64,000 nt of DNA from Candidatus Marinacidobacterales bacterium (GCA_965219415.1 CBDCNP010000002.1:1824001-1888000), one strand, 5' to 3'. Counted from the first letter of the stretch, positions 599-48,928 are shown. A program made the numbers and translations. Notes: generated from the sequence alone by a model not told the origin.

Positions 599-778
599 TG
601 TGCCTTCTATTTATTCATCCGCGCGCCCCGAACCTGATCGGTCTCCGATCTGCCGGGACTATGCCTGCATGATTTCGTCGTTTGTTCGCGCTCGGCCCTG
701 GGCACGGCCGCAAACACAGAACTCTAAGTTGCTGATTTATGGGCTATTTCAAAAGGGCTGAGTTTTGGCACAGGGACG
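599..778 (+). mobile_element. Internally deleted rve/IS481-like element (family-H left end + first codons + family-A right end)
   Basis: Starts TGTGCCTTCTATTTATTCATCCGC, contains ATGATTTCGTCGTTTGTTCGCGCTC as at 8508, ends ...GAGTTTTGGCACAGGGACG. Confidence 0.8.
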
Positions 779-779
779 C

Positions 780-917
780 CGTTGCCACTTGGGGCTGAAC
801 AAGGACACACCGAGCTTGAGAGCGGTCACGCACCGACCGTCTCCTACGGCGAAAGTCGTCGCACTGCCGCGGGTCGGTGGACTGCACCGCCGATACGAGT
901 GGCGAGAGGCAGCCTGA
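780..917 (+). pseudogene. C-terminal stub of rve integrase-core transposase
   Basis: Hand translation CHLGLNKDTPSLRAVTHRPSPTAKVVALPRVGGLHRRYEWREAA*. Confidence 0.75.
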
Positions 918-1636
918 GTCAGCTTGGTCGCTCGCGTTACTCGGCTGGTCGCCGAGAAGTTCGTCCTCAGCACCTTCCCTCGCGCCCTGACCACGCTCTC
1001 CAGCATGGGCTCGAGGGCGGTCCGGGCCTGGATCCAGTCCCGGACTAATTAATGATGATGGACAGCAAGAGGCCCATCAATTCAGGCTTGTTATAGAGGT
1101 GTCGCCGATATACAATTTGCTCTTCCCCTCTTCACGGTCTGATGTTGAATCGATAGAAACAATCGCGAGCAACGGCCGTCCGTCGCTATAAGTCGGCGTT
1201 CGTCAATTCTCGCCGGAAAAATGCGGAGTGGGTGCAGATCATATTGGTCAACCGATATGGGGAAGCCGGATGGGGGGCTGTGCGGGAAACGCTCAGAAAG
1301 AACCCGTCCGTGTGGTCGCTGGCACATCGCGGGAGGGCCGTTGAAATGATCGCTCCCCCTCCTCCTACTCTCGGAGGACTCCTCGAGCTGGCTCAGGAGC
1401 AAGCGCGGCGCGCGGCTCAGGGGGATTCTGACTCGTGCCCCCCGTCGATCACCGGACTCTTCAATGACCACAACTGGGGAAAACTGGGTGACCCTTGATA
1501 CCTCGCCACAAGGGGGCTGGTTCATGGACCACACCGCTGGGCGGCACCGCAGATCTTGGTCAAGATGCGGTCGCCGAGCGTTTCTTTGGTCAGGCCGGTT
1601 CGCAGCGGACCGTCGAAACCCGAGAGGAGGAGAAAC

Positions 1637-2043
1637 GTGAAGTATCGTCATTCATTCCTGTAGGTACTCGCGGTTGTCTTCCTCGCTGGCACACAATACG
1701 CCTGCCGGGCGGATGCACCGAGCCAGGGGGATGCAGAGGACCAGATGGACGCGGAGCGCGCGCAGGGCGCAGCGACCGGCGAGGTTCACTGGAGCTACGA
1801 AGGCGACACCGGACCGTACCAATGGGGTGGGCTGGATTCGTCCTTCGCGGTCTGTGACAGCGGGGCCCAGCAATCTCCGATCGATCTGACGGATGCGATC
1901 CCGGCAGGCGGAGGGGGACTCGAAATCCAGTGGCAACCCGCGGCGGGCGAGGTCGTGGATAACGGACATACCATCCAGGTCAACATAGACGCCGGGAAGT
2001 TCCATCACTCTGCAGGGCCGGCAATTCTCGCTCTTGCAGTTCC
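1637..2043 (+). pseudogene. Alpha-carbonic anhydrase, N-terminal fragment (early stop, frameshifts, cut by MITE-A)
   Basis: WSYEGDTGP..WG, QQSPIDL, DNGHTIQVN; ends at FSLLQF just before the first zinc-binding His. Confidence 0.85.
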
Positions 2044-2190
2044 TGTGCCTTCTATTTATTCATCCGCCAGCCCATGGGTCGGAAGTCAGCCCTGCGGCGC
2101 GAAATACCCTGGATTCTGCGCGGATTCCAAGGGCGTCTAAGCTGCTGATTTGTGGTTTATTTCAAAAGGGCCGAGTTTTGGCACAGGACG
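2044..2190 (+). mobile_element. MITE-A (147 bp)
   Basis: TGTGCCTTCTATTTATTC...GAGTTTTGGCACAGGACG; near-identical to five other complete copies in the window. Confidence 0.9.
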
Positions 2191-2285
2191 GGGTCGACTG
2201 TGCCGTGTTCTCGGGCGAGGTCGAGTGTGCGCGCGGTAAGGTGCTCGCCATCCGCGTCCCCAAGGCATGGCGAGCACCTCGGTGA
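2191..2285 (+). pseudogene. Short C-terminal stub, possibly hot-dog-fold thioesterase
   Basis: VDCAVFSGEVECARGKVLAIRVPKAWRAPR*; bracketed by two inward-facing family-A ends (2190 and 2303). Confidence 0.4.
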
Positions 2286-2326
2286 TGGCTCGTCACCGTT
2301 CCCGTCCTGTGCCAAAACTCGACCCT

Positions 2327-2420
2327 TGTGCTCCGCAGAAAGTCTATCCAGCGTTGATTGCGCGTTTGAGATCTGCTATGGTCGGCTGCTTCTTGTCGAT
2401 CTTCTTTTTTGCGGATCACA
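2327..2420 (+). mobile_element. MITE-C (94 bp)
   Basis: Ends TGTGCTCCGCAGAAAG / TTTTGCGGATCACA; second full copy at 19119-19212, partial copies near 37746, 38483 and 47962. Confidence 0.85.
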
Positions 2421-2570
2421 GCTGTCGACGTGAGCGCCGGTGATGTCGAGCATGCGCTCCGCGCGGTACACGTCGGCCATGCGCACGAGGATGGACATCG
2501 CCATCTTCGCAGCACGACCGAGTTCGCCCGCGAGGAGTGCTTTGTCCTTCTCCGCGAGCTCCAAGCTCAC
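2421..2570 (-). pseudogene. Aconitase X catalytic subunit (DUF521), N-terminal stub cut by MITE-C
   Basis: MSLELAEKDKALLAGELGRAAKMAMSILVRMADVYRAERMLDITGAHVDSC; overlaps the stop of the NSS gene. Confidence 0.75.
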
Positions 2571-4030
2571 GATCCGCTACTCTTTTTCAGGCGGTGGACC
2601 CAGTAGGTGTTGGTGATGACAACCACGACGACGAGCACCGAAATTTGGATGACGGCGGTCCCAACGCTCGATTCACTCCGGAGCTTCCACCAGCCATCGG
2701 GATCGAATTGCGTCGCCGATTGGTAGAACCACCATGCCAGCATGGCAAGAAACTCGAGCGGCACAACGATCGAGATGACCCACACGAACCAGCTACCGAT
2801 CGGATGCTTCTCATCTTCGGTGTTGATGAGCTCCTCCCGGAATTTCGCCGCTCCGTACTTGATGACGGTCACCGCGATGAAGAAACCGGAGAACATGAGG
2901 CCGATGCCCCAGACCCAATCCTGATTCTTGAAAAAGCCCATGAAAAACGCCGAGGGAAGGCCGAGCACAAACGACACCACGCCGACCGTGGCCACGGCGC
3001 GGGTGCGCGAAAAACCCAGGTTCATCATCATGCGGGATGCCATTTCGAGCATGGCGATGAGCGACGAAATCGCCGCGAAGCTCAGCGCGAGGAAGAAAAT
3101 GGGGAGAAAGAGTCGCCCTCCGGGCATCGACGAGAAAAGCTGCGGCATCCAGATGAACGTCAGGCCTTCGTTGCCGGCAGCGAGAGCGGCCGAGGCCTGG
3201 TCTTCGGGAAGAAGGGCGAAGACAGTACACATCACCGCGATGCCGGCGAGAAGCGAAGCCGAACTGTTGCCGAACGCGGTCGTGAGCGTCGTCAGCGTGA
3301 ACGTGTCTTTCTTGCGGAAGTACACGCCATAGGTCGTGACCAGGCCCCAGCCCGCGCCGGTGCTCCACGCGGATTGGGTTAGCGCTGCCAGCCAGACTTG
3401 GTAGTTTCCGAGGTCTTCCCAGTTCGGCGTGAACAGATAGGCCAGGCCTTTCACGGCCCCGGGAAGAGTGACCGCACGGATGGCCGCGATGATGAGGAGC
3501 ACGAAAAGCGCCGGGATGAGGATGCGGTTGGTCCGCTCGATACCACGGACGACGCCTCTATAAATGATGGAGCATCCTATAGCGAGTGCTATGGCGTGGA
3601 AGATGACCGGTTGGATGGGATCGCTAGTGAATCGCGTCCAGTAACTCTCGGCATTGTCGGCGGAGAACACCGTGCCCAAGGAAACGGTAAAGTACTTCAG
3701 ACACCACCCGGTGACGACGGAGTAATAGAACGTGATGAAGCACGTCACCAGTCCCACGAAAACGCCCAACCAGTTGTAGCGTTCTCCTATCAACGTTCCA
3801 ACGGCGCCCGCCGGGCCGCGGCGGGTGGTCTTGCCGAGAGCGAACTCGACGAGAAGAAGCGGGATCGCCCACGCGAACAGGAAGATCACCCAGGGGATGA
3901 GAAACGATCCTCCTCCATTCGCGGCGGCAACTCGTGGAAAACGCCAGATGTTCCCGGTGCCGACCGCCATGCCGATCGAGGTCAGCAGGATCCCCCATCG
4001 AGACGTGAACTCTTCTTTGGATGTGCTCAT
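2567..4030 (-). CDS. Sodium-dependent transporter, NSS/SNF family
   Basis: FTSRWG..LTSIGMAVGTGNIWRFP..NGGGSFLIP motif; 487 aa, many hydrophobic segments. Confidence 0.93.
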   Translation of the reverse strand: MSTSKEEFTSRWGILLTSIGMAVGTGNIWRFPRVAAANGGGSFLIPWVIFLFAWAIPLLLVEFALGKTTRRGPAGAVGTLIGERYNWLGVFVGLVTCFITFYYSVVTGWCLKYFTVSLGTVFSADNAESYWTRFTSDPIQPVIFHAIALAIGCSIIYRGVVRGIERTNRILIPALFVLLIIAAIRAVTLPGAVKGLAYLFTPNWEDLGNYQVWLAALTQSAWSTGAGWGLVTTYGVYFRKKDTFTLTTLTTAFGNSSASLLAGIAVMCTVFALLPEDQASAALAAGNEGLTFIWMPQLFSSMPGGRLFLPIFFLALSFAAISSLIAMLEMASRMMMNLGFSRTRAVATVGVVSFVLGLPSAFFMGFFKNQDWVWGIGLMFSGFFIAVTVIKYGAAKFREELINTEDEKHPIGSWFVWVISIVVPLEFLAMLAWWFYQSATQFDPDGWWKLRSESSVGTAVIQISVLVVVVVITNTYWVHRLKKSSGS

Positions 4031-4373
4031 GCCACTAGTCCCCTGGATCTTTAATTATCACAGGTAAACCCCCGGCTCTGCCGGGGTGACTCGCAGAGGT
4101 TTGACCGTGTGAGGCAGTAATAACAAAGTCCTCCTTGGAAAGCGCCAACTTCCAAACAAGGAGGATGCACAACTCGCGATCTCGGGTCCACAATTGTCCT
4201 GTACTCGCGGATACGAACCTTCCCACGTGCGATCCACCTGCAAAGTGTCTCTGGGGTTATGCCAGCGGACTGCGCTGCATCCTTATAACTCATCCCCGTC
4301 CTGTGCCAAAACTCGGCCCTGGACTTGACCCGCTTTCGTGGACACCTAATCCTTTGGGAGACAGGAGTCCACG

Positions 4374-4688
4374 ATGTCAAAGCAGGGAAACAGATACGCG
4401 GCCGAATTCCGGCGCCAAATGGTAGAGCTGGTGCGAGCTGGCCGCGGCTCCGAAGAGCTGGCGCGAGAGTTTGAGCCCTCGGGCCAGACGATCCGGAACT
4501 GGGTGAACCAGGCGGATCTCGACGAGGGTCGCAGGCAGGACGGTCTGACGAGTGAGGAGCGTGCGGAGCTCCGCCGCCTGCGACGGGAGAACCGTCAACT
4601 ACGGTTGGAGCGGGAGATCCTCTCAAAAGCCGCGGCCTGGTTCGCTCGGGAGACCGAGTCGGTACCACCGAAGCCTTCCGATTCGTGA
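4374..4688 (+). CDS. IS3 transposase OrfA
   Basis: RYAAEFRRQMVELV...ELRRLRRENRQLRLEREILSKAAAWF; AAAAG slippery-type motif near 4625. Confidence 0.9.
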   Translation: MSKQGNRYAAEFRRQMVELVRAGRGSEELAREFEPSGQTIRNWVNQADLDEGRRQDGLTSEERAELRRLRRENRQLRLEREILSKAAAWFARETESVPPKPSDS

Positions 4689-5536
4689 GGGCGAACCAGG
4701 ATTCACTACCGGTTGCCACGATGTGCCGACTGCTGGACGTCTCCGCCAGCGGCTACTATGCGTGGCTTGAGCGTGCCCCGTCGGCCCGCGCGGTGTCGGA
4801 TGCGGAGTTGCTTGAGAAGATCCGGGCGATTCACACCGCGTCGCGGAGCACGTACGGCGCGCCGAGGATTCTCCACGAGCTACGAGAGACACACGAGCTC
4901 CACGTCTCACGCAAGCGTGTAGCGCGGCTAATGCGCGAGGCTGGCATTCAAGGTGTTCACCGGCGCAAGAGGGCGCACACTACGATTCGCTGTGACGACG
5001 CCCGTCCCGCCCCCGATCTCGTCGACAGGAATTTCGAGGTGGACCGGCCCGACCGCCTGTGGGTCGCCGATATCACCTACGTGCCCACGTGGTCGGGCTT
5101 CTTGTTCCTCGCCGTCGTGCTGGACGCCTTCAGCCGACGCATCGTCGGATGGGCAATGGCTACCCACCTGCGGACGTCGCTCGTCTTGAGCGCCCTCGAC
5201 ATGGCGCTGTTCCAACGCAAGCCCGGCGACGTCATCCATCACTCGGACCAGGGCACGCAGTACACGTCACTAGCGTTCGGCCAGCGATGCCGGGAGGCCG
5301 GGGTGCGACCGTCGATGGGTTCGGTCGGGGACTGTTACGACAATGCGATGTGCGAGAGCTTCTTCGCGACGCTCGAGTGCGAGCTGATCGAGCGCCGGTC
5401 GTTTCGCTACCACGCTGAGGCGCGCATGGCGACCTTCGATTTCATCGAAGGCTGGTACAACCCGCGACGACGACACTCCGCCATCGACTATTGCTCGCCT
5501 ATCCAATTCGAAAGGAGGTACTATCGCGACGCTTGA
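4685..5536 (+). CDS. IS3 transposase OrfB (DDE)
   Basis: WVADITY, HHSDQGTQY, DNAMCESFF, WYNPRRRHS. Confidence 0.93.
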   Translation: MRANQDSLPVATMCRLLDVSASGYYAWLERAPSARAVSDAELLEKIRAIHTASRSTYGAPRILHELRETHELHVSRKRVARLMREAGIQGVHRRKRAHTTIRCDDARPAPDLVDRNFEVDRPDRLWVADITYVPTWSGFLFLAVVLDAFSRRIVGWAMATHLRTSLVLSALDMALFQRKPGDVIHHSDQGTQYTSLAFGQRCREAGVRPSMGSVGDCYDNAMCESFFATLECELIERRSFRYHAEARMATFDFIEGWYNPRRRHSAIDYCSPIQFERRYYRDA

Positions 5537-5960
5537 TCCCTAACTCTTAACCTGTCCACGAAAGCGGGGTCACTTCAGCCCTTTTGAAATAGACCACAAA
5601 TCAGCAGCTTAGACGCCCTTGGAATCCGCGCAGAATCCAGGGTATTTCGCGCCGCAGGGCTGACTTCCGACCCATGGGGCTGGCGGATGAATAAATAGAA
5701 GGCACAACCAAGCCTAGACACCTCTAATCCGAAACGTCCCGGCGCGTGGGTCTTGAGTTCGTTTGTGTTTTTGGACACGACGGGCATGGACTCTGCTGCG
5801 TTGCTGGAGACGACATCGATCGAACGGTGGAGGAGTTGCGCCGTCGGTATGAGCAAAACCACGACGATTGCAGCGTTTTGTCGTCCAATGAAACCGGTCC
5901 CTGCCGACTGGCCCGCTCGCACCAAGCGTGAGCCTAGCACCTAGTAAAGGTGAAGGTCCC

Positions 5961-6109
5961 CGTCCTGTGCCAAAACTCGGCCCTTTAGAAATAGACCACA
6001 AATCAGCAGCTTAGACGCCCTTGGAATCCGCGCAGAATCCAGGGTATTTCGCACCGCAGGGCTGACTTCCGACCCATGGGCTGGCGGATGAAAATAAATA
6101 GAAGGCACA
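5961..6109 (-). mobile_element. MITE-A
   Basis: Reverse-complement copy of 2044-2190. Confidence 0.9.
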
Positions 6110-8300: not shown

Positions 8301-8437
8301 CGGAACGTGTCAACGACATTGAGACACCCGCGTGTTGCATTTAGTGAGCCTCGATTGGTGTCGCCGGGGTCATGACGACGTCGCGGTCCACGTCCGCTTC
8401 GATCGCGAACGCGCCACAAGGAGTGGAAACAGGGGGT

Positions 8438-8668
8438 TGTGCCTTCTATTTATTCATCCGCGCGCACCGAACTTGATTAGTCTCCGGTCTGCCGGCACCA
8501 TGCCGGCATGATTTCGTCGTTTGTTCGCGCTCTCGTCTCTGCCTTCAAGGCTCGTCGCGAGCTAGCTCTCGAGAATGTCGCTCTTCGGCAGCAGCTCGTC
8601 GTCCTCCGCCGTTCGGTGAAACGGCCGCGGCTCTTGAATGTCGACCGCGAGTTTTGGGTGCTGTTGCG
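8438..8668 (+). pseudogene. rve/IS481-like element left end and transposase N-terminus (family H), cut by MITE-B
   Basis: TGTGCCTTCTATTTATTCATCCGC then MISSFVRALVSAFKARRELALENVALRQQLVVLRRSVKRPRL. Confidence 0.85.
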
Positions 8669-8835
8669 GGTGCTTCCGCCATTAAGTGTTGGTGAGATGA
8701 CGCTAAGACTTTACGCTGCATTAAATTACAGCCAAAATAGCGCTCACGACCTTCGCCGCGCACTAAATGGAGCGTAAGCGCTTTTTTTGCAAAGGGATAC
8801 GTACACATCACCAACAGCAAACAGCGCAAGCAACC
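8669..8835 (+). mobile_element. MITE-B (~166 bp, IS1-like ends)
   Basis: GGTGCTTCCGCCATTAAGTGTTG...ACAGCGCAAGCA(A)CC; seven full copies in the window. Confidence 0.88.
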
Positions 8836-9328
8836 GGGCGAGACCCACCTCGCCTGCGCCGCTGTGGCGTCCGGGGTGCCCCCCTCCAGCCGGGAGCCGC
8901 GCACCGTCACATGCGACGCCGACGACCCGCGCAGGCGTTCACCCACCGCGTCCACCGCCTGGAGTCGTTTCTCGATTCCGCGAGGAGCCCTCCGAGTTAT
9001 TGAGCGCTTCTTCGAATCGCCATGCGGCTCCATGAATGGCTCTTCGTTCACCCTTCACGACGCTCTCACGGCCGGCCCGTCATCACAGCGTAGAATTGAT
9101 TCGTTTCTCGAACTCACGAAGGATAGAATCGCTTATTCGTCAACTACCCATGACTGAACAGGCGGCCATGTTTTTGTCCACCCGGTCTGGCCCACTTTGA
9201 TCATTTCATTTGGCCCACCCTAAGTTATTGATTACACACGAAGAGAAGTAATAAGTGCCCCTTTCCTCTGTTGCGGCCGGAGCTAAGTGAAGGCCGCCTC
9301 GAGTGAAACCGGAGCAAAGCGTGTTCTG

Positions 9329-10099
9329 TCATGATGTTGCCGTCTTTTTCCGGGTTTTGAGCGAGCGACGGAAGCGATAGGACTCGGTACCGGTTTCGAG
9401 GATGTGAGCCTGGTCGGTGAGCCGGTCCAGTAGCGCTTTGCACAGCCGGGCGTTTGTGAACACTTGCGTCCATTCCGAGAACGGCAAGTTAGTGGTGATG
9501 ACGGTCGCGGCGCGCTCACATCGTTCGGAGACGACCTGAAACAACAGTTCGGCACCGACCTCGGCGAGCGGTACGTAGCCGAGTTCGTCGATGCACAGCA
9601 GTTCGAAGCGGGCGTGCTTGCGAATAGCCTTAGAAAGCTGGAGCTCCTCCTTGGCCTCGACGAGTTCGTTGACGAGCCTCGACGCGGTCGTGAACCGCAC
9701 TCGACGACGCTGCTGGCAGGCCTCTACACACAGCGCGGTGGCGAGATGGGTTTTGCCAGTGCCGGCATCGCCGAGAAAAATCACCGGCTCTGCCCGCTCG
9801 AGGTATCTACCCTCAGTGAGTTGGCGGATTCGCTGAGCGGACAGCTTCGGTGACAGCGAGAAGTCGAACTCGTCGAGCGTCTTCGCTCTCGGCAGCTGTG
9901 CTTCCTTCAGCCGTCTCTGAACCGTTCGGTGTTCTCGCTCTTCGACTTCAGAGCTGAGCAGAACCTCCAGATAACCCACGTGGGTTTGTTTTTCGCGGCT
10001 AGCTTGTTCTGCGAGCTTGTGGAACTGAGCTGACACCGTTGGCATCCGAAGCGTCTTGCAATGCTGCTGGATCGTCTGAATCTCGACGGGTTGTCTCAT
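9329..10099 (-). CDS. istB: IS21 helper ATPase IstB
   Basis: [44 protein letters not shown]. Confidence 0.95.
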
Positions 10100-11633
10100 C
10101 GACTTACCTCGTGTGCCTGCTCATCCACGAGTCGGTCGTAGTGACCCACGTGAGGTAGAGGACGTTCGTAGCGCGCCAGCTCACCGAGTTGAGATTGGAC
10201 TAGCTCTGACGATGCCGCGCGCGAAAGCGATGGAGACTCGACAAGGTGCCGAATCGCGTCTGCATCGATACAGCCGATCTCAAGCGCCACACGCAACGTA
10301 TCTCTTAGCTGGTCGTAACCGTGTCGGCGTCCAAGCTGCACGAGTTCGATCATCTGACGCGTGCCTTCTTGCTTGCCCGTGACGACGATTCAATCGCTTC
10401 CACACTTCATCGTAGCTCGCTGGCCACCGTCCTTGCTCGCGCCACTGCGCCAGAGGCGTCGACCCGGCTAAGGCTCCGGGTTTGCGCTCGAGGACGTCCA
10501 AGTAGTGTTCAAGATCTAGTACTTGTTTCATGCGGTCGTAGCAGCGTTCGTGACGCGCCACCCGGCGTCCCTCGTGCCAGACCTCAACTTCAAGCGGCAT
10601 CAGCTTGGCCACCGCACGTTGGCCGCGCTTGAGCGGCGTCGAGTACCAGTTCGTGCCCGCACGGACGCAACCCTTCTTATCCACCAGACCGATTCGTCTT
10701 TCTTCGAGCTCGAAACCCTGCGTCGCCAGTGGCAACAGGTGCTCGCGTTCGTACTCCATCCCAACACCAACCGTATGTGCTTTGCCGGAGATGTGACGTT
10801 TCTCCTCCTTGCGGCAACACGTCAGCAGGTAGTCGTTCAGCTCTTCCCAATCCGTGAACTCAGGGACCGGCGTCCAGTGATTGCGGCGGAAGTAGCCGAC
10901 CTCGCTTTCCACACCGCCTTTCTCGTTTCCACGGCTCGGATTGCAAAATTCCGACTCAAAACTCCAATGCGAGCGAAACATGATGAACCGTTCTGTTTGC
11001 TCACGTTGGTGACCCCGAAGGATCTTCCTCACCGCCAGCGATAGGTTGTCGTAACGCAGCCGGTGGAACACCCCGCCGAAAAACTCGAACGCCTTCTCGT
11101 GCGCTTCGAAAAACGCTTGCTGCGTCGGACGCGGATACCCTCGATGCAACGCCCCTCCGCTTGCCATGCTCCGAACCACCAGCACGTAGACCTTCTGCTC
11201 TCGCCCTCCGATCCGTGAGTGAGCCTCGTACCAGTCCACTTGGCCTTCACCGCCCCACTCGTAACTCTGGGGCACGAACACTTCGGCGTCCTTCAACCCC
11301 AGCTCTCGCCTCCGACGACCTACGTAGCGACGTATCGTTGGTTCCGCTATCTCATGTCCCGGATACTCCTCAATCACACGACTCCAGATTCGATGAGCCG
11401 TGTGACGCTGTTTGCGCGGGGCTCGCTTGTCTCCTTCCAGAATCCCGTCGATGAACTCGACCACTGGACCCAGTTTCGGTGACGCCCGTTCTGGACATTT
11501 ACGCTCCCGTGGCACAGCCTTCTCCAGGGCCTGTCGCAACCATTCGTCGGTGAACACCGTACTTCGTTGCAACTCCTTGAATCGTTCCAACTCCGCGTTC
11601 GTACTCTCGCCTCATCTGCTCGAACAGTCGCAC
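10096..11633 (-). pseudogene. istA: IS21 transposase IstA with two apparent frameshifts
   Basis: [11 protein letters not shown]..., [32 protein letters not shown]; frame breaks near 11540 and 10380. Confidence 0.88.
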
Positions 11634-11820
11634 TTTGGCACCCCTTTCCAACCGACACCTCCTTCCCGGGACTTCGCCCCGGGAAGACTAACGGTTCGAT
11701 ACGGGTGGGCCAAATCAGACGATCAATATGGGCCAAAACAGAGTAGCAAACACACGGCCATCCTGTGGTTCGAACAGGTGCTCGCCCGCACATGAACATC
11801 ATCTATAAAGAAGAGACCGT

Positions 11821-12901
<1,081 letters not shown>

Positions 12902-13067
12902 GGTGCTTCCGCCATTAAGTGTTGGTGAGATGACGCTAATACCTTACGCTGCATTAACTTACAGTCAAAATAGCGCTCGCAACCTTCGCTGCGCGGTAAA
13001 TGGAGCGTAAGCGCCTCTTTTGCAAAGGAATGCGTACACATCACCAACAGTAAATAGCGCAAGCACC
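12902..13067 (+). mobile_element. MITE-B
   Basis: GGTGCTTCCGCCATTAAGTGTTG...GCGCAAGCACC. Confidence 0.9.
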
Positions 13068-13377
13068 CCTCCCGCACCAACAATCGTTCCAACCCAGCCT
13101 TGACTCAAAAAGCGGATAAATTCCTGCATGCCAAGTTCCTATCTATCCGAAAAGCGGTGCGGCTCAGACGATTTCCGAACGCGGTTTCCGTCCATCCTCG
13201 TCGTGGCTATTCATTTGGTGCTCCTGCCATCGAGTGTTGCTACACCGCTAAAGGCATTTGAAGGTTAGTGTCAGTTGGCCTGGGGGTATTGTCAATACGG
13301 ATCTGGGATGGCTGGCTATACCTGGCCGTCATCATCTACCTGTTCTCGCGTCGTACCATTGGCTGGTCGATGCAACC

Positions 13378-13506
13378 CGTCGTGTCCAAAAACACAAAGG
13401 CGTTGCCAAGCCCTTGATGGTTGCGCTCTCCACGATAATGATAGATGAACCCGGCGACGGCCCGGCGCACGGGTCTTAGAGTTCGTTTGTATTTTTTGAC
13501 ACGACG
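13378..13506. mobile_element. 129-bp two-ended mini-element (family-D ends) enclosing a transposase sliver
   Basis: CGTCGTGTCCAAAAACACAAA ... TTTGTATTTTTTGACACGACG; the inside encodes HYRGERNHQGLGNA on the minus strand. Confidence 0.75.
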
Positions 13507-13520
13507 ACGACGCTGGGATC

Positions 13521-14438: not shown

Positions 14439-14457
14439 GATAGATATACACTATCAT
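14437..14457. promoter_or_regulatory. OxyR-type operator (ATAG-N7-CTAT) in the oxyR/dps intergenic region
   Basis: ATGATAGatatacaCTATCAT palindrome; ATAG at 14440-14443, CTAT at 14451-14454. Confidence 0.7.
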
Positions 14458-14540
14458 AATAATATGAAAGATATCTTGGACGAATCAGCGGATTACTGGC
14501 ATCCTTGGGTCAGGAAAACGACGAAAGGAGACACCAAGAG

Positions 14541-15020: not shown

Positions 15021-15032
15021 CTAGATCGTCCC

Positions 15033-34115: not shown

Positions 34116-34211
34116 CTTATGATGAGGTATGAGAGAAGAGGACGACCTTCATCGCCGCGGCGATCTAACCCTTCTTGAACGCTGCAGTGTGAGCCACTCC
34201 AGGAGGTAACG

Positions 34212-34793: not shown

Positions 34794-34794
34794 T

Positions 34795-34960
34795 GGTGCT
34801 TGCGCTGTTTACTGTTGGTGATGTATATGCATCCCTTTTCAAAAGAGGCACTTACGCTCCATTTAGCACGCAGCGAAGGTCACGAACGCTATTTTGGCTG
34901 TAATTTAATGCACCGTAGGGTCTTAGTGTCATCTCACCAACACTTAATGGCGGAAGCACC
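34795..34960 (-). mobile_element. MITE-B
   Basis: Begins 1 bp after the bactofilin stop codon. Confidence 0.9.
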
Positions 34961-35715: not shown

Positions 35716-35820
35716 GTCAACGTTCAGCAGTACACTGAGCTGCTGATTTATGGTCTATTTCAAAAGGTCCGAGTTTTGGCACAGGACGGGGTGGCGGAGG
35801 GTGCAGTCTGGAGCCATCCG

Positions 35821-35866
35821 CGTCGTGTCCAAAAATACAAATTCGTTTGTGTTGTTGGACACGACG
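35821..35866. mobile_element. 46-bp minimal element made of two family-D ends
   Basis: CGTCGTGTCCAAAAATACAAA-TTCG-TTTGTGTTGTTGGACACGACG. Confidence 0.75.
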
Positions 35867-35969
35867 GAATTCGCACGTTCGCAGGCAACAAGAAGACGCC
35901 GAGACGTTCGTCCTCGACATCCATCGGCAAGGGACGAGCGTGCAACCATCCCCGCCATTGAGATAGACG

Positions 35970-37676: not shown

Positions 37677-37805
37677 GACTCCCCTCCTGAGTTCTAAATC
37701 ACCCCCATAGCATAGAACAAACCCGTTGTGTCCGAAAACACGAACGGCAGGTCTAAAATGCGCAATCAACACTGGATAGACTTTTTGCGGAGCACAGCCG
37801 TGAAC

Positions 37806-37971
37806 GGTGCTTGCGCTGTTTGCTGTTGGTGATGTGTACGTATCCCTTTGCAAAAAAAGTGCTTACGCTCCATTTAGCGCGCGGCGAAGGTCGTGAGCGC
37901 TATTTTGGCTGTAATTTAATGCAGTGTAAAGTCTTAGCGTCATCTCACCAACACTTAATGGCGGAAGCACC
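37806..37971 (-). mobile_element. MITE-B
   Basis: Full reverse-orientation copy. Confidence 0.9.
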
Positions 37972-41495: not shown

Positions 41496-41642
41496 TGTAC
41501 CTTCTATTTATTCATCCGCTAGCCCATGGGTCGGAAGTCAGCCCTGCGGCGCGAAATACCCTGGATTCTGCGCGGATTCCAAGGGCGTCTATGCTGATGA
41601 TTTGTGGTCTATTTCTAAAGGGCCGAGTTTTGGCACAGGACG
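41496..41642 (+). mobile_element. MITE-A
   Basis: Full copy with a few substitutions. Confidence 0.9.
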
Positions 41643-44600
41643 CCGAACGCCAGCGATACCGCCATGGGTATCAAGAACGTTGCCTGCATGCTTCTTTCGA
41701 GCATGAGGGGCAGCAGTCCCGCAAACGTTGTGAGCGAAGTCAAGAGGATGGGGCGAAAGCGCACCACGCCGGCTTGACGGATCGCTGCCGCAAGGTCGTC
41801 CTTGGTCTTACGGTAGCGGTTGATGAAATGCACCATGATCAAATTGTCGTTCACGACCACCCCGGCCAAGGCGACGATACCGAACATGGAGAAGATGGTG
41901 AGGTTCAATCCAAGCAGGAAATGTCCCCAGGCGGCGCCAACAATGCCAAAGGGGATGGCGGCCATGATAATGAGAGGCTGTGAGTAAGACTGCAAGGGTA
42001 TCGCCAGCAATGCGTAAATCAACACCAGCGCGATGGCAAAGCCTCGTTGCAGTCCAGCCAGAGATTCTCGCTGCTCGGCCTGTGCGCCCTCGAGGGAATA
42101 GAAGACACTCGGGTGGTCCGCGACGATATCGGGGAGTATGGTGGCCTCCAGATCGGCGATGATATCTCCCGGGGTCACTTGCAAGGAGTTCACATCCGCG
42201 GTGACGTTCACCGACCGGCGCCGATTCACGCGCTGGATGGATGCGTAGCCCCGTCCCGGGGAAACCTCGGCCACCTGATCGAAGGGCACTTCTTGACCAC
42301 TCGAGGTACGAATACGTAGATTCTCCAGGTCGCCCAACGATCGGCGCTCCTCTTGCGGATAGCGAACCATGACGCGGACATCATCGCGCCCTCGCTGAAT
42401 TCGTTGCGCCTCCTCGCCGTAAAATGCTTGCCGCACCTGCCGCGCCAGATCGGCGAGGGTCAGGCCGAGTACCTCCGCGCGCGGTTGGATCTGCAGCTTG
42501 ATCTCCCGCTTTCCTTCGCGGAAGGAATCCGCGATCTCGTAAACGCCGGCATACTCGGCGAGGCGCAGCTTGAGCTCAGTCGCGGCCGCCCGGAGCTCAT
42601 CCAGATCCGAACCGGTTAGCTCGATGTTGATGTCCTCTCCCGGAGAAAAGAGGGTGGCGTTGAAGGACATCTCAACCGCGTCGGGGATGGGGCCGATGAG
42701 ATCTCGACACCGCTCCGCGAGGGTGGAGCTACTGATGTCCCGGTCTTCGGAGGGGACGAGCTCGATGGTGAATTCGCCAAGGTGAGAGCCCGAGTAATTG
42801 ACCTGCCGTCCCGCGCTCGGTCCCATGGTGTTCTGCGACGTCCGAAAGGGTTGATCGCCCACCGCTGCGTATGAATGGCGATAGAGGTCGGTCCCGAACT
42901 CGTCCTCGAGCTGTTTGCGAAGCGTCGCAGCGGATTGTCGAAGCCGCTCAACGCCTTCCGCCGTCGTCGCAACGGGCGTGCCTTGTGGCATGGTGAGGCT
43001 CGCGGTGATGAAGTCGGCCTCGATCTCGGGAAAATAAATGAACGTTATCCAGCCTCCACCCACCAACCCCAATGTGAGGATCAAGGTGGAAACGCCGGTG
43101 GCCAATGTGAGGTAGCGCCAGTGAAGGGCGCACTCAAGGAACGGCCGGTAAAAGGTGTCGATCTGACGCTCCAAACCTTCCGAGAAGCGTGCGTGCAATC
43201 GTCGCCAAAGCCCGGCGCGGGGTGGATCCACGTGGTTCCTCTTGCTCAGTCGTGAGAGGTGATGCGGAAGGATCCACAACGATTCGACCAGCGAAAACAG
43301 AAGACAGGGAATGACGATGAGGGGGATGGTCCGCATAATCTTACCCATTGTTCCGGGAACCATGAGCAGGGGCATGAACGCGGCTATCGAGGTCAGCACC
43401 GCGAAGATGACCGGCGTCATGACGGCCTTCGTACCTTCGATCGCGCCTTCGAGACCCTGATGAGAGGCCTGCTGATGGGTGTAGATGCTCTCGCCGACCA
43501 CGATCGCGTCATCGACAACGATCCCCAAAACGACAATGAAAGCGAAGGCGGAGATCATGTTGATCGAGACGTCGAAGGTCGGCATCAACCAGATGGCGCC
43601 CAAGAAGGAGATGGGAATTCCGAGGCTCACCCAGAATGCCAAGCGAAATCGCAGGAAAAGAGCGAGGGTAAAGAACACCAGGACGAAACCCAGGCGTCCG
43701 TTCCGAAGCATTAAGTCGAGACGGTCGCGAAGCGTCTTCGAGGTGTCGCCCCACGTTGTAAGAGTGATTCCGGCGGGCATGTTGCGTTGCGCGTCGGTGA
43801 CGTAGGTATTCACTTTGTCGGCGATGTCCAGTGCGCCTTGTTCACCGGTGCGATAGGTACGGATGATCATCGTCGGTTGGTCGTCGAAGAAGGAGGATTG
43901 ATCGGTTTCGGCGAAACCGTCGTTCACCCGGGCGACATCACCCAGACGTAGATGAGTGCCGTCAGGATGGGTGATGAGAACGAGATCTTCGAACTCCCGT
44001 TGGCGGTACGCCTGCCCCTTGGCACGCAGCAGAATTTCTCCTCCGCTGGTTTTGACCGAGCCGCCGGGCAAATCGAGAGAAGAGCGTCTCACCGCGTCCG
44101 CCACCTGGCTGAATGTCAGCCCGTGCCGCCGCAAATCGCGCTCCGAGACTTCGATCGAGATCTCGTAGGGACGCGAGTTGACGAACTCGACTTGGCTGAT
44201 TCCGGGAATCGCGGTGAGCTCGTCCCTTACCTGCTCGGCTAGGAATTTGAGCGTCGATTCGTCGGCATCGCCCCACAGCGCAATGTCGATGACCGGCCGG
44301 CGGGTAGTGATCTCCTGGATCACCGGCTTTTCGGTCTGCTCGGGGAAGGTAATGATGGCGTCGACTCTCGATTTGACGTCATCCACGACTTTGCGCGTAT
44401 CGGCACCGAGCTCGAGCTCGATGACGACTTTACCCGAGCCCTCGTTGGCGGTCGAGGTGATTCGCTTGATGCCATCGAGTCCTTGGATCGCCTCTTCGAT
44501 GCGCGTGCAGACTGCTTCTTCGACTTCTTCGGGCGCAGCTCCGAGGTACTCGACGGAGACGGTGATCAAGTCGAGAGAAAACTCGGGCATCACTTCTTGC

Positions 44601-44701
44601 TTGAGGTTGAAAATGGTGAGGAATCCACCCAACACGATCAAGATCATCATCAAGTTCGCGGCGACGCCGTTGCTGGCAAACCATTCGACGGTTCGATTCA
44701 T
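41615..44701 (-). CDS. RND efflux permease (AcrB/AcrD/AcrF family), last helix truncated by MITE-A
   Basis: GIVVDDAIVVGE, GVVVNDNLIMV, RFRPILLTSLTT, PMAVSLAFGV then MITE-derived LCQNSAL*. Confidence 0.92.
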   Translation of the reverse strand: MNRTVEWFASNGVAANLMMILIVLGGFLTIFNLKQEVMPEFSLDLITVSVEYLGAAPEEVEEAVCTRIEEAIQGLDGIKRITSTANEGSGKVVIELELGADTRKVVDDVKSRVDAIITFPEQTEKPVIQEITTRRPVIDIALWGDADESTLKFLAEQVRDELTAIPGISQVEFVNSRPYEISIEVSERDLRRHGLTFSQVADAVRRSSLDLPGGSVKTSGGEILLRAKGQAYRQREFEDLVLITHPDGTHLRLGDVARVNDGFAETDQSSFFDDQPTMIIRTYRTGEQGALDIADKVNTYVTDAQRNMPAGITLTTWGDTSKTLRDRLDLMLRNGRLGFVLVFFTLALFLRFRLAFWVSLGIPISFLGAIWLMPTFDVSINMISAFAFIVVLGIVVDDAIVVGESIYTHQQASHQGLEGAIEGTKAVMTPVIFAVLTSIAAFMPLLMVPGTMGKIMRTIPLIVIPCLLFSLVESLWILPHHLSRLSKRNHVDPPRAGLWRRLHARFSEGLERQIDTFYRPFLECALHWRYLTLATGVSTLILTLGLVGGGWITFIYFPEIEADFITASLTMPQGTPVATTAEGVERLRQSAATLRKQLEDEFGTDLYRHSYAAVGDQPFRTSQNTMGPSAGRQVNYSGSHLGEFTIELVPSEDRDISSSTLAERCRDLIGPIPDAVEMSFNATLFSPGEDINIELTGSDLDELRAAATELKLRLAEYAGVYEIADSFREGKREIKLQIQPRAEVLGLTLADLARQVRQAFYGEEAQRIQRGRDDVRVMVRYPQEERRSLGDLENLRIRTSSGQEVPFDQVAEVSPGRGYASIQRVNRRRSVNVTADVNSLQVTPGDIIADLEATILPDIVADHPSVFYSLEGAQAEQRESLAGLQRGFAIALVLIYALLAIPLQSYSQPLIIMAAIPFGIVGAAWGHFLLGLNLTIFSMFGIVALAGVVVNDNLIMVHFINRYRKTKDDLAAAIRQAGVVRFRPILLTSLTTFAGLLPLMLERSMQATFLIPMAVSLAFGVLCQNSAL

Positions 44702-45332
44702 GGTGCCCTCTCACCGTTGAAAGGCGTTTCCGGTCGTCCGCCTTCGGGCTGGATGCGCACCTCCATGCCGTCGGTGACCGCTCCCAGCGGGGAGAGCAAG
44801 ACCCTTTCTCCGTCCTCGAGCCCGTCCCGGACAACTAGCTCTTGATGTGTTTGGCGAAACACGTCGACCTCGCGAAACCGGAGTCGATTCGAAGAGTCGA
44901 CGATCAGAACGTTTCCATCGCTCCTTAAAGCGGCGCGGGGTAGGACCGCAACGTTTTCGGCAACAATTCCCTGTATCTCCGCCTCCACGAACATTCCCAC
45001 TGCCAGCGGTGGGCGCTCGCTTTGTTCGGCACGGCCGTATGGGTTTTCGATTTCCACGACCGCGTGCACCATTCGGCTGGTGCGGTCGATCTCCCCTTCG
45101 GTACGCACAATGCGGCCTTTCCATTCGAACTCTTTGCCCGCGAAATCGGCGCGAAGCCTCACCTCCGGGCCGGCCTGTGCGCGGCTTTCCCCCCGATAGA
45201 CGAGCGGCAGATCCAGATAGGCCAATTCGGTATCGGGTAAGGGAAGCCGAATCTCCGCTTTGTCGATAGCGTAGATGGTTGCCAAGGGACTTCCGACGGT
45301 CACGAACTGTCCAAGGTCGACGTTCTCTTGGC
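44698..45332 (-). pseudogene. RND periplasmic adaptor (MFP), N-terminally truncated
   Basis: VDLGQFVT.G..LATIY, WKGRIVRTEGEID, LAVGMFVEAEI, LPRAALR, GLEDGERV. Confidence 0.88.
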
Positions 45333-45575
45333 TGTGCATCGTCAAAACTGCTCCGCCCACGAAATCAAGGACTTACGCTCCGCTTGAATTCCGGGCCGAA
45401 GACGGCGAAACTCCGCCGCTATGCTCAACGTTGTTGTCTTCCTCGTCTCACTTGGCGTCCGTGCCATTCGGGCGATGTGTCGGCACCGCGCCGACCTGGT
45501 GTTGGAGAACGTCGCTTTGCGGCAGCAAGTGACGGCGCTGAAGAAAGAGCGCCCACGCCCACCGCTCGACGACAA
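45333..45575 (+). pseudogene. rve/IS481-like left end and transposase N-terminus (family J)
   Basis: TGTGCATCGTCAAAACTG; MLNVVVFLV...RADLVLENVALRQQVTALKKERPRP. Confidence 0.8.
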
Positions 45576-45820: not shown

Positions 45821-46084
45821 GGGAGAAGGAATACCACGCCTAACTACAAATTAGACTGTTTCCGCCTAAAATCCCCAACACTGCATGACGCCGCTTCCCA
45901 TCACGCGGGCCGCCTTCGTGAACGTATTGGAAGCACAGGGCTTATGGGAATCGGTCCTGGAGATATAATGCAGGAACTTGCAGGGTGCTTCCGCCATCAA
46001 GTGATGGAATGGACTCCTCCACTGACATAGACGGCATCGATGTGCCAAAGTCAGTCGAATACGCATCGAAAAGGAGGAGTCCGA

Positions 46085-47116
46085 ATGAAAGATACGACAA
46101 TCGCTGTGGATCTTGCAAAGAACGTCTTCGAGATTGCCATCTCGGGAGAAGCGGGGAAGGTGTCCAAGCAACTCCGTGTGAGTCGACCCAAATTGGTGTC
46201 GTTCTTTGCCAAACAGAGCGCTGCCACCGTGCTTCTCGAAGCCTGCGGCTCGGCTCACTTCTGGGCAAGGACGTTCCGAAGGTTGGGACACGACGTCGTC
46301 CTGCTCCCACCTCACCTCGTGAGGCCGTATCGACGCGGGAGCAAGAACGACCGCGCCGACACGAAGGCGTTGCTCGAGGCCTACAGGAACGAGGAGCTTC
46401 TTCCCGTACCCATCAAGTCCGTGCACCAGCACACCCTCGCTGCGCTCCATCGCCTGCGCTCAGGATGGCTCTCCACACGGACCGCACGCATCAATGCCGT
46501 ACGCGGGCTCCTGCGCGAACTCGGATTCATCATCCCAAAGGGCGCTCACTTCGTCGTGCCCGCCCTCTTCGAACTCGTCGAAGACGCTGATTCTGATTTG
46601 CCCGACGTGCTCCGTTCGCATCTCCGTGATGCCTGCTCCGAGATTCGAGAACTCAAGGACAAGTGCGCTAGCATCGAGCACGAGCTCAAGGCGCTCACCA
46701 AGCAGCTTCCTGAAGTCCAACGACTTCTCGCCATTCCCGGCATCGGACTTCTGGCCGCGACCGCCATCGTGGGCTTCGTCGGCGATCTTCGCCGCTTCCC
46801 ATCGGGGCGCCGCTTCTCGAGCTACCTCGGCCTAGTTCCCAAGGAAAACTCCAGTGGCGACATTCGCCGCCTCGGACGCATCACCAAGCGTGGCGACTCC
46901 TACCTCCGTATGCTCCTCACCCAGGGCGGGCGCGCCGTGCTCCGCGCGGCGAACGTCAGCAAGAGCCCGCCCGACAAGCTCCGCGCCTGGGCTCGGAAGG
47001 TCCACCGCTCGCGGGGACACAACAAGGCCGTGATTGCTGTCGCCAACAAACTCGCCCGGATCGTCTGGGCCGTCTCCACCCGCGAGAGTGAATTCCAGTC
47101 GCCGGTGGCCGCTTAG
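46085..47116 (+). CDS. IS110/IS1111 DEDD recombinase
   Basis: IAVDLAKNVF, LEACGSAHFW, KNDRAD, IPGIG, YLGLVPKENSSG, ITKRGDSYLR, AVANKLARI. Confidence 0.96.
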   Translation: MKDTTIAVDLAKNVFEIAISGEAGKVSKQLRVSRPKLVSFFAKQSAATVLLEACGSAHFWARTFRRLGHDVVLLPPHLVRPYRRGSKNDRADTKALLEAYRNEELLPVPIKSVHQHTLAALHRLRSGWLSTRTARINAVRGLLRELGFIIPKGAHFVVPALFELVEDADSDLPDVLRSHLRDACSEIRELKDKCASIEHELKALTKQLPEVQRLLAIPGIGLLAATAIVGFVGDLRRFPSGRRFSSYLGLVPKENSSGDIRRLGRITKRGDSYLRMLLTQGGRAVLRAANVSKSPPDKLRAWARKVHRSRGHNKAVIAVANKLARIVWAVSTRESEFQSPVAA

Positions 47117-47189
47117 ATTTAGAGGCTCCACTTTCGTGTTTTCCTTTTTCCCTTCCAAAAGAGGCTGCGACGATACCCATCCAACTGAT

Positions 47190-47345
47190 GGCGTACCGGT
47201 CGGACCGGCGCGGGGTCAAGCCAATAGCAACACTGGCCCTAAGAGGTCGTTCAAAGTGATTGGCTCCTCGCGCGCGGATTTTCCATCATGGCCCGGAGCA
47301 CCCAAGACGCTCCTCACTGAGGCCGAAGATACGTTTGCAGTCTGA
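47190..47345 (+). ncRNA. Predicted bridge/seek RNA of the IS1111 element (boundaries approximate)
   Basis: Stem GCCAAT/ATTGGC enclosing target matches; second loop with TTCCATCAT and AGATACG matching the element's own end junction. Confidence 0.75.
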
Positions 47346-47570
47346 CCCACTCGTCACGACGCGATGGATGCGCAGCTTCGATGGAAGATTTATTAAGAAA
47401 GGGGCGTGACTAGAAAGAAAGGGGCTTGACTAGAGGAGTCCAGATATGTTGCTACGCGGCTGCGGGCAGTGGTACAGGCGCGGAAGAGACCGGGTTGCGC
47501 GCCCCCGCTGGTCCAAATACTCGAACGCCCAGTTCGCCAATCTCATACAGCTCGAGTTTATGGAAGGGAC

Positions 47571-47957
47571 AGGGACTACAGCGAGCGGCGGAAACAACTC
47601 GGACGGCCCCGGGTCATGGCGGAGATTAGCGAGCTCGTTGTGGGGATGGCTCAGTATCATGGAGAGCGCAACCATCAAGGGCTCGGGAACGTGTTGATCG
47701 AAGCGGAAGAATGCGTCGGTAGTCCCGACGGGAAGGTGCGATGTCGTAAGCGATTGGGCGGCTTGCTCAGTTACTACCACCGCGCCGCCGCATAGGAGTT
47801 CGGGCGCGCCAGCTGGACGGAACGGATGTTCTGGAGGAGAGCTTCTGCTCGGGGTCGCCTATCGCAGCTCCAGTGCCGCGTCGGCTGGTCCCCGCGAATT
47901 TCGACAACGCCTCTAGGATTAGAGATTTCGGCTCCGTTCGCATTTTCGGACACGACG
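47571..47957 (+). pseudogene. Family-F transposase remnant (internally deleted) and right end
   Basis: DYSERRKQLGRPRV... fused to YHGERNHQGLGN...RLGGLLSYYHRAAA*; ends TTTTCGGACACGACG. Confidence 0.82.
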
Positions 47958-48181
47958 CCGTCGTGCTCCGCAAAGAGTCGATCCAGTGTTGATTGCGCGG
48001 TTTAGACCTGCCATGATCGGCGGCTGCTTCGCGCCGATCGAAACGACGACGCCACCGGTGCTTTCGCTGTCAAATGTTGGCGGCCACCGCGTAACCCGTT
48101 CGCGTCCTAGAGTTTGAGCCTGATTTCGAGAGGCGTGGTTTTTTCGTCGATGCCGACTGGGCCGAGTTTTGGCACAGGACG

Positions 48182-48666
48182 GGGTGCGCGGGCTCGAAGA
48201 TGACGACATCGCCAGCATCTTCGATGCATTCCAGCAAAATCGAAATTGGGAAGAGGCTCGAAGGTACGGCTTCATTTCAGCCGGCGGTGGTCGGTGGTAC
48301 ACGAAGAGCTTGGAGATGTTGCACGAAGGCGCTCGCATTTGGGTCTACATACCCGGCACAGGCTATGTTGGCGTCGGGCGAATACTTGAGAAATCGGTGC
48401 CGGTCTCCGAGTTCTTGATAGATGACGACCACGGCAAGTCTGTGCCGATCACGAACCTGCCGCTCGCGATCGCGAAAAGCAATGTCGATGATCCTGAGAA
48501 GATGGAGCATCTTGTCAAGGTCGAGTGGATCAAGACCGTTCCGGTTGCTGAGGCTGTTCTCGAGAAAGGGTTTTTTGCAAACCAACACTCTGCCGCGAAA
48601 CCAAGGGCAAAGAAGTGGCAGCATACGGTTGATAGACTTCGCGTGGGATTTGGCGTGACGGACTGA
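48182..48666 (+). pseudogene. C-terminal domain of a putative NucS/DUF91-like nuclease
   Basis: RNWEEARRYGFISAGGGRWY...RIWVYIPGTGYVGVG...VKVEWIKT; no own start; between two inward-facing family-A ends. Confidence 0.55.
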
Positions 48667-48675
48667 CGCCGTCCC

Positions 48676-48822
48676 CGTCCTGTGCCAAAACTCGGCCCTT
48701 TAGAAATAGACCACAAATCAGCAGCTTAGACGCCCTTGGAATCCGCGCAGAATCCAGGGTATTTCGCGCCGCAGGGCTGACTTCCGACCCATGGGCTGGC
48801 GGATGAATAAATAGAAGGCACA
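48676..48822 (-). mobile_element. MITE-A
   Basis: Full reverse copy, followed by a family-E end (about 48827-48908) homologous to about 7484-7566. Confidence 0.9.
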
Positions 48823-48928
48823 GCTACCTACCCCTGCAAAACCCCGCCAACCGCGCGGAAAATCTCACCCGTCTCTGCAGTGCCACAATTTGCCAGACTG
48901 GGTGGCGGAGGCACGCGGATTCAATCCT

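Follow-up and report, generated by a model that had tools for sequence, protein, structure and literature searches.

A stretch of 64,000 nt from Candidatus Marinacidobacterales bacterium (GCA_965219415.1, CBDCNP010000002.1:1824001-1888000), here called the window, contains a block in which unrelated genes and gene stubs are interspersed with insertion sequences (IS) and with short mini-elements. The genome comprises 8.05 Mb in three contigs (C1, C2 and C3) with a GC content of 59%, and the window corresponds to C3:1824001-1888000; positions below are counted from its first nucleotide unless a contig is named. An earlier note on this DNA had described positions 599-48910 as a gene-capture array in which mini-elements act as linkers between different DNA molecules. 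The right end of that array has been roughly confirmed. Its left end has not, since the block starts to the left of the window, at about -4560 (C3:1819440), and extends to about 48900, with most of its sequence recurring elsewhere in the genome. The block, put at 57 kb, is one of many accretion zones of mobile elements, for which no dedicated capture system is needed. Its probable nature is that of a horizontally shared mobilome junkyard, produced by nested insertion, adjacent deletion and recombination with one-sided loss of flanks.

Element families were defined by repeat finding and by BLAST against the genome. F1 is 150 nt long with the tips TGTGCC...GGCACAGGACGGGG, has 69-70 near-full copies genome-wide, and has the same tips as fragments of IS481-like elements (A-type). 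F2 is 167 nt long with the tips GGTGCTTCCGCC...GCAAGCACC, has 148-150 near-full copies genome-wide, and its GGTGCTTCCGCC tips match both ends of a 1201-nt IS1-like element (B-type). F3, of about 180 nt, is related to F1 and has A-type left and right tips. Like MITEs (miniature inverted-repeat transposable elements), F1 and F2 are short and multi-copy, and their terminal inverted repeats match IS of the same genome; the flanking target-site duplications (TSDs) of the parent type are missing from nearly all copies. The window holds seven F1 (one partial), seven F2 and one F3, in addition to many solo ends. These numbers bear out the six MITE-A and seven MITE-B counted previously, and of the two full MITE-C counted with them the second could not be identified. 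Solo tips far outnumber whole elements (A-type left 243 and right 534; B-type 441 and 185). At C3:4879624-4879924 two F1 copies lie head to tail with zero spacer, the right tip GGACGGGG being followed directly by TGTGCC, an arrangement resembling the active tandem junctions of some IS families.

The IS1-like element carries a frame (20105-21052, plus strand) that scores 78.6 bits (E 5.8e-22) against the IS1 model NF033558, under the cut-off of 100; the model has 55 matches genome-wide, none above the cut-off. This element is likely the autonomous partner of F2. Members of the IS1 family generate TSDs of 8-9 bp, and some members with a single open reading frame (ORF) are listed with 0-9. A second full-length old element, IS-X, is IS481-like, 1288 nt long, with a 360-aa rve frame and the ends TGTGCATCG...GATGGACA, and reaches about 80 bits against NF033577, under the cut-off of 224. 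The IS481 family is characterised by a DDE transposase of the rve type and by ends of the TGT...ACA type. An intact autonomous A-type element was not found by pairing left and right tips, which gave 22 pairs of 600-5000 nt with no consistent length. An IS5-derived element of 597 nt with fixed ends is 98-100% identical in at least nine other genomes. The young families comprise IS3, IS21, IS110, IS256 and one further family labelled ISy. Pairwise identity is 99.7% in the young families, 96-97.5% in the old families and 91% in F2. Transposase matches in the ORFs of the window are of the IS1, IS481, IS3, IS5, IS21, IS110 and IS256 types, with no IS6 match. The features of the window are as follows.

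599-778, plus strand: F3 mini-element, no TSD
786-1065, plus strand: 3' fragment of IS-X (about 83 copies of this part)
1230-2043, plus strand: stub of a carbonic anhydrase module, 5' part only, cut by an F1 tip
2044-2193, plus strand: F1 mini-element, flanks unrelated
2421-4165, minus strand: SNF-family transporter module (gene 2567-4030)
4320-5577, plus strand: young IS3-family element (TSD GCCC) lying within an A-type right end
5556-5706, minus strand: partial F1 (131 of 150 nt)
5958-6109, minus strand: F1 mini-element
8433-8668, plus strand: A-type IS481-like element, 5' end only, truncated by F2
8669-8835, plus strand: F2 mini-element with IS1-type tips, no TSD
9169-11754, minus strand: young IS21 (IstA/IstB), TSD CGGCCA
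12902-13068, plus strand: F2 mini-element, terminating the stub 11791-12901
13374-15235: LysR-Dps module (LysR 13521-14438, minus strand; Dps/ferritin 14505-15020, plus strand)
16162-16935, minus strand: aquaporin (MIP) module
17402-18716, plus strand: IS3-family element with an ALIL frameshift pseudoknot (17730-17846), inside an A-type 3' end (16936-17402)
20044-21244, plus strand: IS1-like element, no TSD
21268-21418, plus strand: F1 mini-element
21416-25597, plus strand: DUF885, GMC oxidoreductase and HD-domain genes
25598-26192, minus strand: IS5-derived element, 597 nt
26193-26359, minus strand: F2 mini-element, with the IS5-derived element on one side and an A-type 3' part (26360-26733) on the other
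26955-29955, minus strand: TonB-dependent receptor module (gene 26970-29855)
30158-30325, plus strand: F2; an A-type right end at 30387-30484
30623-30789, minus strand: F2; a 3' part of an A-type IS at 30790-31434
31628-32596, plus strand: methyltransferase module
32598-32747, plus strand: F1 mini-element, after the methyltransferase module
34117-34960: bactofilin gene segment (gene 34212-34793, plus strand, joined to F2 at 34794-34960, minus strand)
35709-37735, minus strand: segment of an amidohydrolase module (module 35970-37853), with a solo A-type right end at 35735-35791
37805-37971, minus strand: F2 mini-element
41496-41645, plus strand: F1 mini-element, extending into the 3' end of the AcrB frame
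41615-45360, minus strand: AcrB-type pump (41615-44701) and HlyD-type adaptor (frame of 220-224 aa)
45984-47505, plus strand: 24 nt of a B-type tip, then a young IS110-family element
48673-48822, minus strand: F1 mini-element, the last old element ahead of the clean flank
59617-61077: IS256-family element, TSD CTCCCGCA
61569-62969, plus strand: IS256-family copy (IS256b), TSD halves swapped with C3:1889974-1891374

The orientation of the mini-elements is mixed (F2 + + - + - - -; F1 + - - + + + -). None of the 15 F1, F2 and F3 copies in the window has a TSD, and flank comparison shows that the two flanks of each are unrelated, in agreement with what had been noticed before. Genome-wide, TSDs were found in at most 1 of 69 F1, at most 2 of 145 F2 and at most 1 of 31 IS1-like copies, and in none of 50 IS-X copies. 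The joint at 2044, already singled out, illustrates the pattern: the carbonic anhydrase stub (1515-2043) ends right where the F1 tip begins (2043/2044), an intact copy at C3:2651-2652 kb (98.7%) shows the expected continuation, and the continuation belonging to the stub was found neither behind F1 nor anywhere else in the genome. Searches for empty sites in the genome with joined-flank queries (69 F1 and 148 F2) gave only 7 and 6 spanning matches, all of them tandem artefacts or weak one-sided matches. Missing halves and reciprocal flanks elsewhere in the genome, which would have argued for ordinary reshuffling of native DNA, were likewise searched for and none were found.

The young families show a different behaviour. 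TSDs are kept in 18 of 36 copies of IS3a, all 6 of IS21, 19 of 24 of IS256a and 4-7 of 10 of IS256b, so that TSD loss follows the age of the family. In the window the contrast drawn earlier with elements that restore their targets holds for IS3 (GCCC), IS21 (CGGCCA) and IS256 (CTCCCGCA), but target restoration by the IS1111 element could not be confirmed. This IS110/IS1111-type copy lies 24 nt inside a B-type tip, and the remainder of the tip does not follow it. The same 24 nt of the B-type (IS1-like) tip stand upstream of each of the 15 near-full IS110-family copies, 45984-47505 included, either because the inverted repeat serves as the target or because the 24 nt are part of the element itself. 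Some IS1111-type elements target transposon ends. Pooled over the young families, 47 of 120 copies are without a TSD, 25 of 50 inside the islands and 22 of 70 outside (Fisher p=0.057). Thus the lack of TSDs is no special property of the mini-elements; full-length IS481-like and IS1-like copies behave the same way, young IS do so in part, and orientations are mixed, which speaks against mini-elements as dedicated linkers.

Recombination between IS copies can be seen directly at the edge of the window, where the inverted IS256b pair 61569-62969 and C3:1889974-1891374 (L050) carries each other's 8-bp TSD halves (TTGTAGAT and CAACAGTC); the segment of about 3 kb between them was therefore inverted by recombination between the copies. 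Of 25 IS256 and ISy copies that lack a TSD, only 6 have a reciprocal mate of this kind, and even young IS therefore lose their flanks mostly on one side. The flank class (repeat or unique) is the same on both sides in 30 of 36 IS3a and 19 of 24 IS256a copies, and is mixed in the old families. Unique flanks on both sides were found for 57 of 70 F1, 106 of 149 F2 and 45 of 50 IS-X copies, and old copies therefore did not multiply mainly by segmental duplication, which is excluded as their main route of growth. Plain mutational decay of the TSDs is also excluded, because the copies are 96-98% identical and an 8-bp repeat would mostly persist.

The origins of the segments between the elements were obtained from searches of 40 relatives, and the earlier view that they are of different origin is correct. 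No conclusion drawn here depends on the unpublished genome G007. Three classes exist: high-identity modules common to other genera and a second family, duplicates from other islands of the same genome, and segments at native level. Ordinary orthologues in genomes of the other genera and the second family are about 66-76% identical. By comparison, the TonB receptor module (26955-29955) is 93-94% identical at eight loci in six genomes (G003, G014, G018, G022, G026 and G034). The LysR-Dps module, variously truncated, is 98-99% identical in G022, G018, G003 and G014, and the aquaporin module 98-99% in G018, G003, G014, G022 and G016, with an orthologue at 81% in the same-genus genome G001. Copies of the SNF transporter module at 99% are present in G034, G014 and G003, against 68% for the orthologue of the host genus, and a duplicate at 99.8% lies at C3:2635-2637 kb. 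Further members of the pool are the carbonic anhydrase module (99% in both G022 and G026), the methyltransferase module (93-94% in G014, G022 and G008) and the bactofilin gene (91-97% in G026, G016 and G014), whose junction with F2 is repeated at C3:3580-3581 kb (95.8%). The amidohydrolase module is 99% identical at two loci of the same-genus G002 versus 75% in G001. F2 itself is present in 14 of 41 genomes at up to 99% identity. In the public runs that contain this region (X15, X16, X1 and X2), contig depths add up to about 1500-3000 over the TonB module and the repeats and to 8-19 in unique segments, a difference of about 100-fold, which suggests many copies or many carriers in those samples.

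Duplicates of segments from other islands are 96-99.8% identical, and at their boundaries one copy stops at an element tip and the other runs on. Elsewhere the SNF, Dps, MIP and carbonic anhydrase modules occur in copies cut short at differing positions. The DUF885-GMC-HD segment (21416-25597) is 79-89% identical to G001, where it lies between the orthologues of C3:313 kb and C3:316 kb; in the present genome that native site is occupied by a young IS plus 673 nt of different DNA, and the last 939 nt of the segment also occur at C3:315188-316126 (99.5%). By this comparison the segment was relocated from its native locus. Its HD-motif gene (24897-25529, and C3:315426-316058) is single-copy in relatives at 72-76% DNA identity and present twice here at 99.5%; the protein has no Pfam match and was named from its motif by eye. 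An RNA gene considered for the conserved 550 nt at 24957-25517 was rejected, there being no Rfam match and an HD-type frame being encoded. The AcrB pump and its adaptor are 78% identical to G001 and so lie outside the high-identity pool.

The pattern extends over the genome and is not peculiar to this locus. The 100-kb bin with the window contains 49 old-family tips versus 0-1 in the adjacent bins, which is more than chance, and 10-kb bins with old tips number 208 of 570 in C3, 11 of 29 in C2 and 1 of 207 in C1. Islands of old elements take up about 2 Mb of C3 together with part of C2. C1 (2.07 Mb) and C3:0-1.8 Mb are nearly free of the old IS1-like and IS481-like families and of the mini-elements, which make up a large part of C3:2.5-5.7 Mb and of C2; young IS families are everywhere. 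As in other genomic or plasticity islands, the block is dense in mobility genes, has content of mixed origin and lies at a break in synteny with G001, where its flanks are about 0.75 Mb apart (calculated by hand for a circular chromosome, which is assumed). The GC content per kb (0.53-0.66 versus 0.59 for the genome) does not distinguish the island.

The reading that we consider probable accounts for these observations as follows. Old IS1-like and IS481-like elements and their miniatures would have entered, time after time, a pool of dispensable DNA exchanged horizontally, and would often have landed within the ends of one another. One flank of nearly every old copy may afterwards have been lost or swapped through adjacent deletion, through deletion or inversion between copies, or through nested insertion, and the genes between the elements would be passengers of the exchanged pool. 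The old elements would accordingly sit at the joints of unrelated segments without TSDs because one original flank was later removed or exchanged. A simple exponential extrapolation by hand takes TSD retention from 61% at about 0.3% divergence to about 2% at 2.5%; about 2% retention corresponds to 1-2 copies per old family, which matches the observations. Ngan et al. (2024, mBio, PMC11708052) attribute missing TSDs frequently to recombination between IS and to adjacent deletion. Four-gamete incompatibility climbs with distance in IS-X (from 0.12 to 0.27-0.30) and in the IS1-like element (from 0.06 to 0.28-0.33), which indicates that full-length old IS copies are mosaics. Nested truncations are seen directly. 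From these patterns we infer in what order the events took place and how the deletions divide between those made by transposases and those made by recombination. For the mini-elements, two mechanisms had been offered earlier: that each end attacks its own target, and that the copies serve as portable homology. Both are already known, as replicative transposition and as recombination between IS.

A number of observations weigh against this reading, and most of them would be expected if the joints were made by transposases instead, in a manner IS26-like in effect. IS1-like, and perhaps IS481-like, transposases would then, on full and miniature elements alike, chiefly carry out replicon fusion, joining aimed at DNA beside existing ends, and adjacent deletion; each event would join a tip to foreign DNA, and units of element plus gene would travel between islands, plasmids and genomes. 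We regard this as possible but doubtful. In its favour, TSDs are absent in every genome examined, low-copy ones included: in five other genomes none of 11 full IS1-like copies has one, and none is present at the sole F2 match in G008 or at a copy in G001, where recombination between copies should be rare. These G008 and G001 copies also sit between pool modules, however, and provide no clean empty site. Breakpoints lie exactly at the tips and mosaicism within mini-elements was not seen (F1, 0 of 105 site pairs incompatible; F2 flat at 0.13-0.16). Recombination over 150-167 nt at 91-97% identity should be inefficient, and the breakpoints nonetheless fall at the tips. The clock of the extrapolation given above is divergence between copies, which gene conversion could distort.

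The behaviour of individual joints leads in the same direction. B-type elements occur at fixed positions in A-type ends, with 17 joints of an A tip fragment to B against 3 of B to an A body (464 ends are intact), and insertion followed by random loss should give about equal numbers. Joints of two types at this hot spot overlap by 8 nt (TCCTGTGC), which hints at an 8-bp stagger and fits a staggered cut of 8 bp by the IS1-like transposase with the halves separated later. A second hot spot lies 52 nt into the A-type left end, with different B elements at four loci. The joint of the TonB module to the right tip of F2 is common to five loci in four genomes, and the far side of the same F2 differs in three versions. 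The uninterrupted sequence at this joint survives in the window and in G014. On the other side of the module, an A-type right end, a B tip within it, an A-type left tip and tips of a further family are found at nested positions in different genomes. A test for mosaics among the F2 copies beside the module revealed no clear hybrid structure. Modules duplicated very recently (99.5-99.8%) already have new joints to tips of old families, so that joint formation is still active, yet no old-family copy resembles a fresh simple insertion. Reciprocal TSD mates were looked for among 626 B-type tips and were absent beyond the hot spot (k=9: 3 observed versus 3.5 in the control), which is also against the probable reading and rules out reciprocal scrambling alone (inversions and translocations) for B-type elements.

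Work on IS26 (Harmer et al., 2014, PMC4196232; He et al., 2015, PMC4471558) indicates that TSD-less arrays can be transposase-made. The arrays, translocatable units and pseudo-compound transposons described there are also alike in having unrelated segments among copies of one element, no TSDs, and segments that occur in other contexts and hosts. There are also differences. The elements here are IS1-like and IS481-like together with mini-elements, F1 and F2 lie in mixed orientations unlike the direct arrays of IS26, and no array of the IS26 type is formed. The cargo consists of housekeeping-type accessory genes (aquaporin, Dps, transporter and TonB receptor). None of the elements belongs to the IS6 family, the best match being to IS1 below the model cut-off. 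Moreover, fusions should leave TSD mates on two copies, and none were found; a high rate of TSD loss is seen in young IS of other families too. Since unrelated families (IS481-like, IS1-like and IS5-derived) share the pattern, a shared passive cause is simpler than one special enzyme. In its most specific form, which seems improbable, the proposal is that the IS1-like element and its 167-nt derivative, perhaps with the IS481-like elements, would constitute a linker system outside IS6. Tips would be joined to a second molecule or a distant site with no TSD-flanked simple insertions and with a preference for fixed positions in the ends of other elements, and a pool of single-gene modules would be built, reshuffled and exchanged between genera and families of the order.

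Another explanation is insertion into DNA breaks, by which copies would be captured at duplication and deletion junctions as these form, and hence would never have had TSDs or continuous flanks. Ngan et al. (2024, PMC11708052) observed IS481 and IS5 moving de novo and leaving no TSD, in the middle of a duplication and at a deletion, and proposed that the elements insert into breaks already present; this is a precedent for joints made in one step and a further point against later flank loss. Here the partly overlapping duplicates end at tips in one copy and continue in the other, and the main old families include IS481-like and IS5-derived elements. On the other hand, the 8-nt overlap at the hot-spot joints looks like a staggered transposase cut, and the published mechanism is itself a hypothesis. 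We consider break insertion decidedly improbable as the general explanation. Decay of flanks, joining by transposase and capture at breaks cannot be separated by sequence alone.

Assembly artefacts, in which repeat-driven misjoins create false junctions, are a highly improbable explanation: the region is dense in repeats of 150-1300 nt, the short-read contigs used for checking stop at repeats and leave most junctions uncovered, and the contamination estimate of the genome is 8.45%, but an 8-Mb genome in three contigs with hundreds of repeats implies long reads spanning 150-1300 nt, joints of the same types, even identical ones, turn up again in genomes assembled independently, young IS in the same islands have clean TSDs, unique segments match short-read contigs with 0-3 differences, and one independent contig (run X16, 3299 nt, 0 differences) bridges an F1 tip and the segment from 21424, so that the misassembly against which the earlier note had cautioned was not encountered.

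Other known systems share some of these features. The IS-rich plasticity zones described in PMC11708052 are similar in having TSD-less IS at the breakpoints of deletions, inversions and duplications, with IS of the IS481 and IS5 types involved. The present islands differ in scale, with about 300 old full copies and essentially no TSDs; they are also sharply compartmentalised, and their elements and modules are common to several genera at 93-100%. Integron mobilization units are composite structures with a miniature element at each boundary. TIME-COMPs (Microb Genom 2026, PMC13367494) are composites of genes flanked by miniature elements, a situation resembled by the TonB receptor between the inverted F2 copies 26193-26359 and 30158-30325. 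The outer flanks of this pair are unmatched, so there is no outer TSD and the pair does not form a composite transposon, and most modules here are bounded by tips of different families. With integron cassette arrays the block shares unrelated single genes at one locus, but it has no common recombination site, its orientations are mixed and many of its segments are truncated stubs. No integrase domain was found in 181 stop-to-stop ORFs of at least 120 aa, 150 of them covered by one scan and the other 31 among the 46 ORFs of a second, attC sites not having been searched with a dedicated model, and the term integron-like collection holds only as a description.

The mini-elements and single-gene modules (aquaporin, Dps, transporter and TonB receptor) found at 93-100% in several genera and in two families point to an active inter-genus mobilome in environmental bacteria. 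If the probable reading is true, the islands are an unusually clean natural record of the rate at which IS flanks are scrambled, with families of different ages in one cell line, and the genome has a sharp split into clean and junkyard compartments. If transposases do join tips directly to foreign DNA, gene recruitment of the IS26 kind would also take in IS1-type elements and their miniatures, and direct joining of tips would bear on whether TSD-less IS movements accompany rearrangements.

A few further features of the window are recorded here. Within the 3' part of the bactofilin gene there is, at 34618-34782, a 15-nt tandem repeat of about 10 units (CTGCTGAGCCAGAGG-like) that would encode a repetitive tail rich in Ala, Glu and Pro. 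A hairpin-ended sequence (CCCGGCTCTGCCGGGG...) occurs beside modules in several genomes, at 4080-4165 in the window and at the loci L008 (6745-7107), L005 and L006; in G026 it comes after a short frame that by eye resembles an IS200/IS605-type transposase. Rfam searches of the window returned ALIL and three tRNAs only. The tRNAs (tRNA-Pro, tRNA-Arg and tRNA-His) form a cluster at 59052-59433; close by on its right comes a second block, with young IS256 and IS21 elements, that extends from 59617 to C3:1896000.

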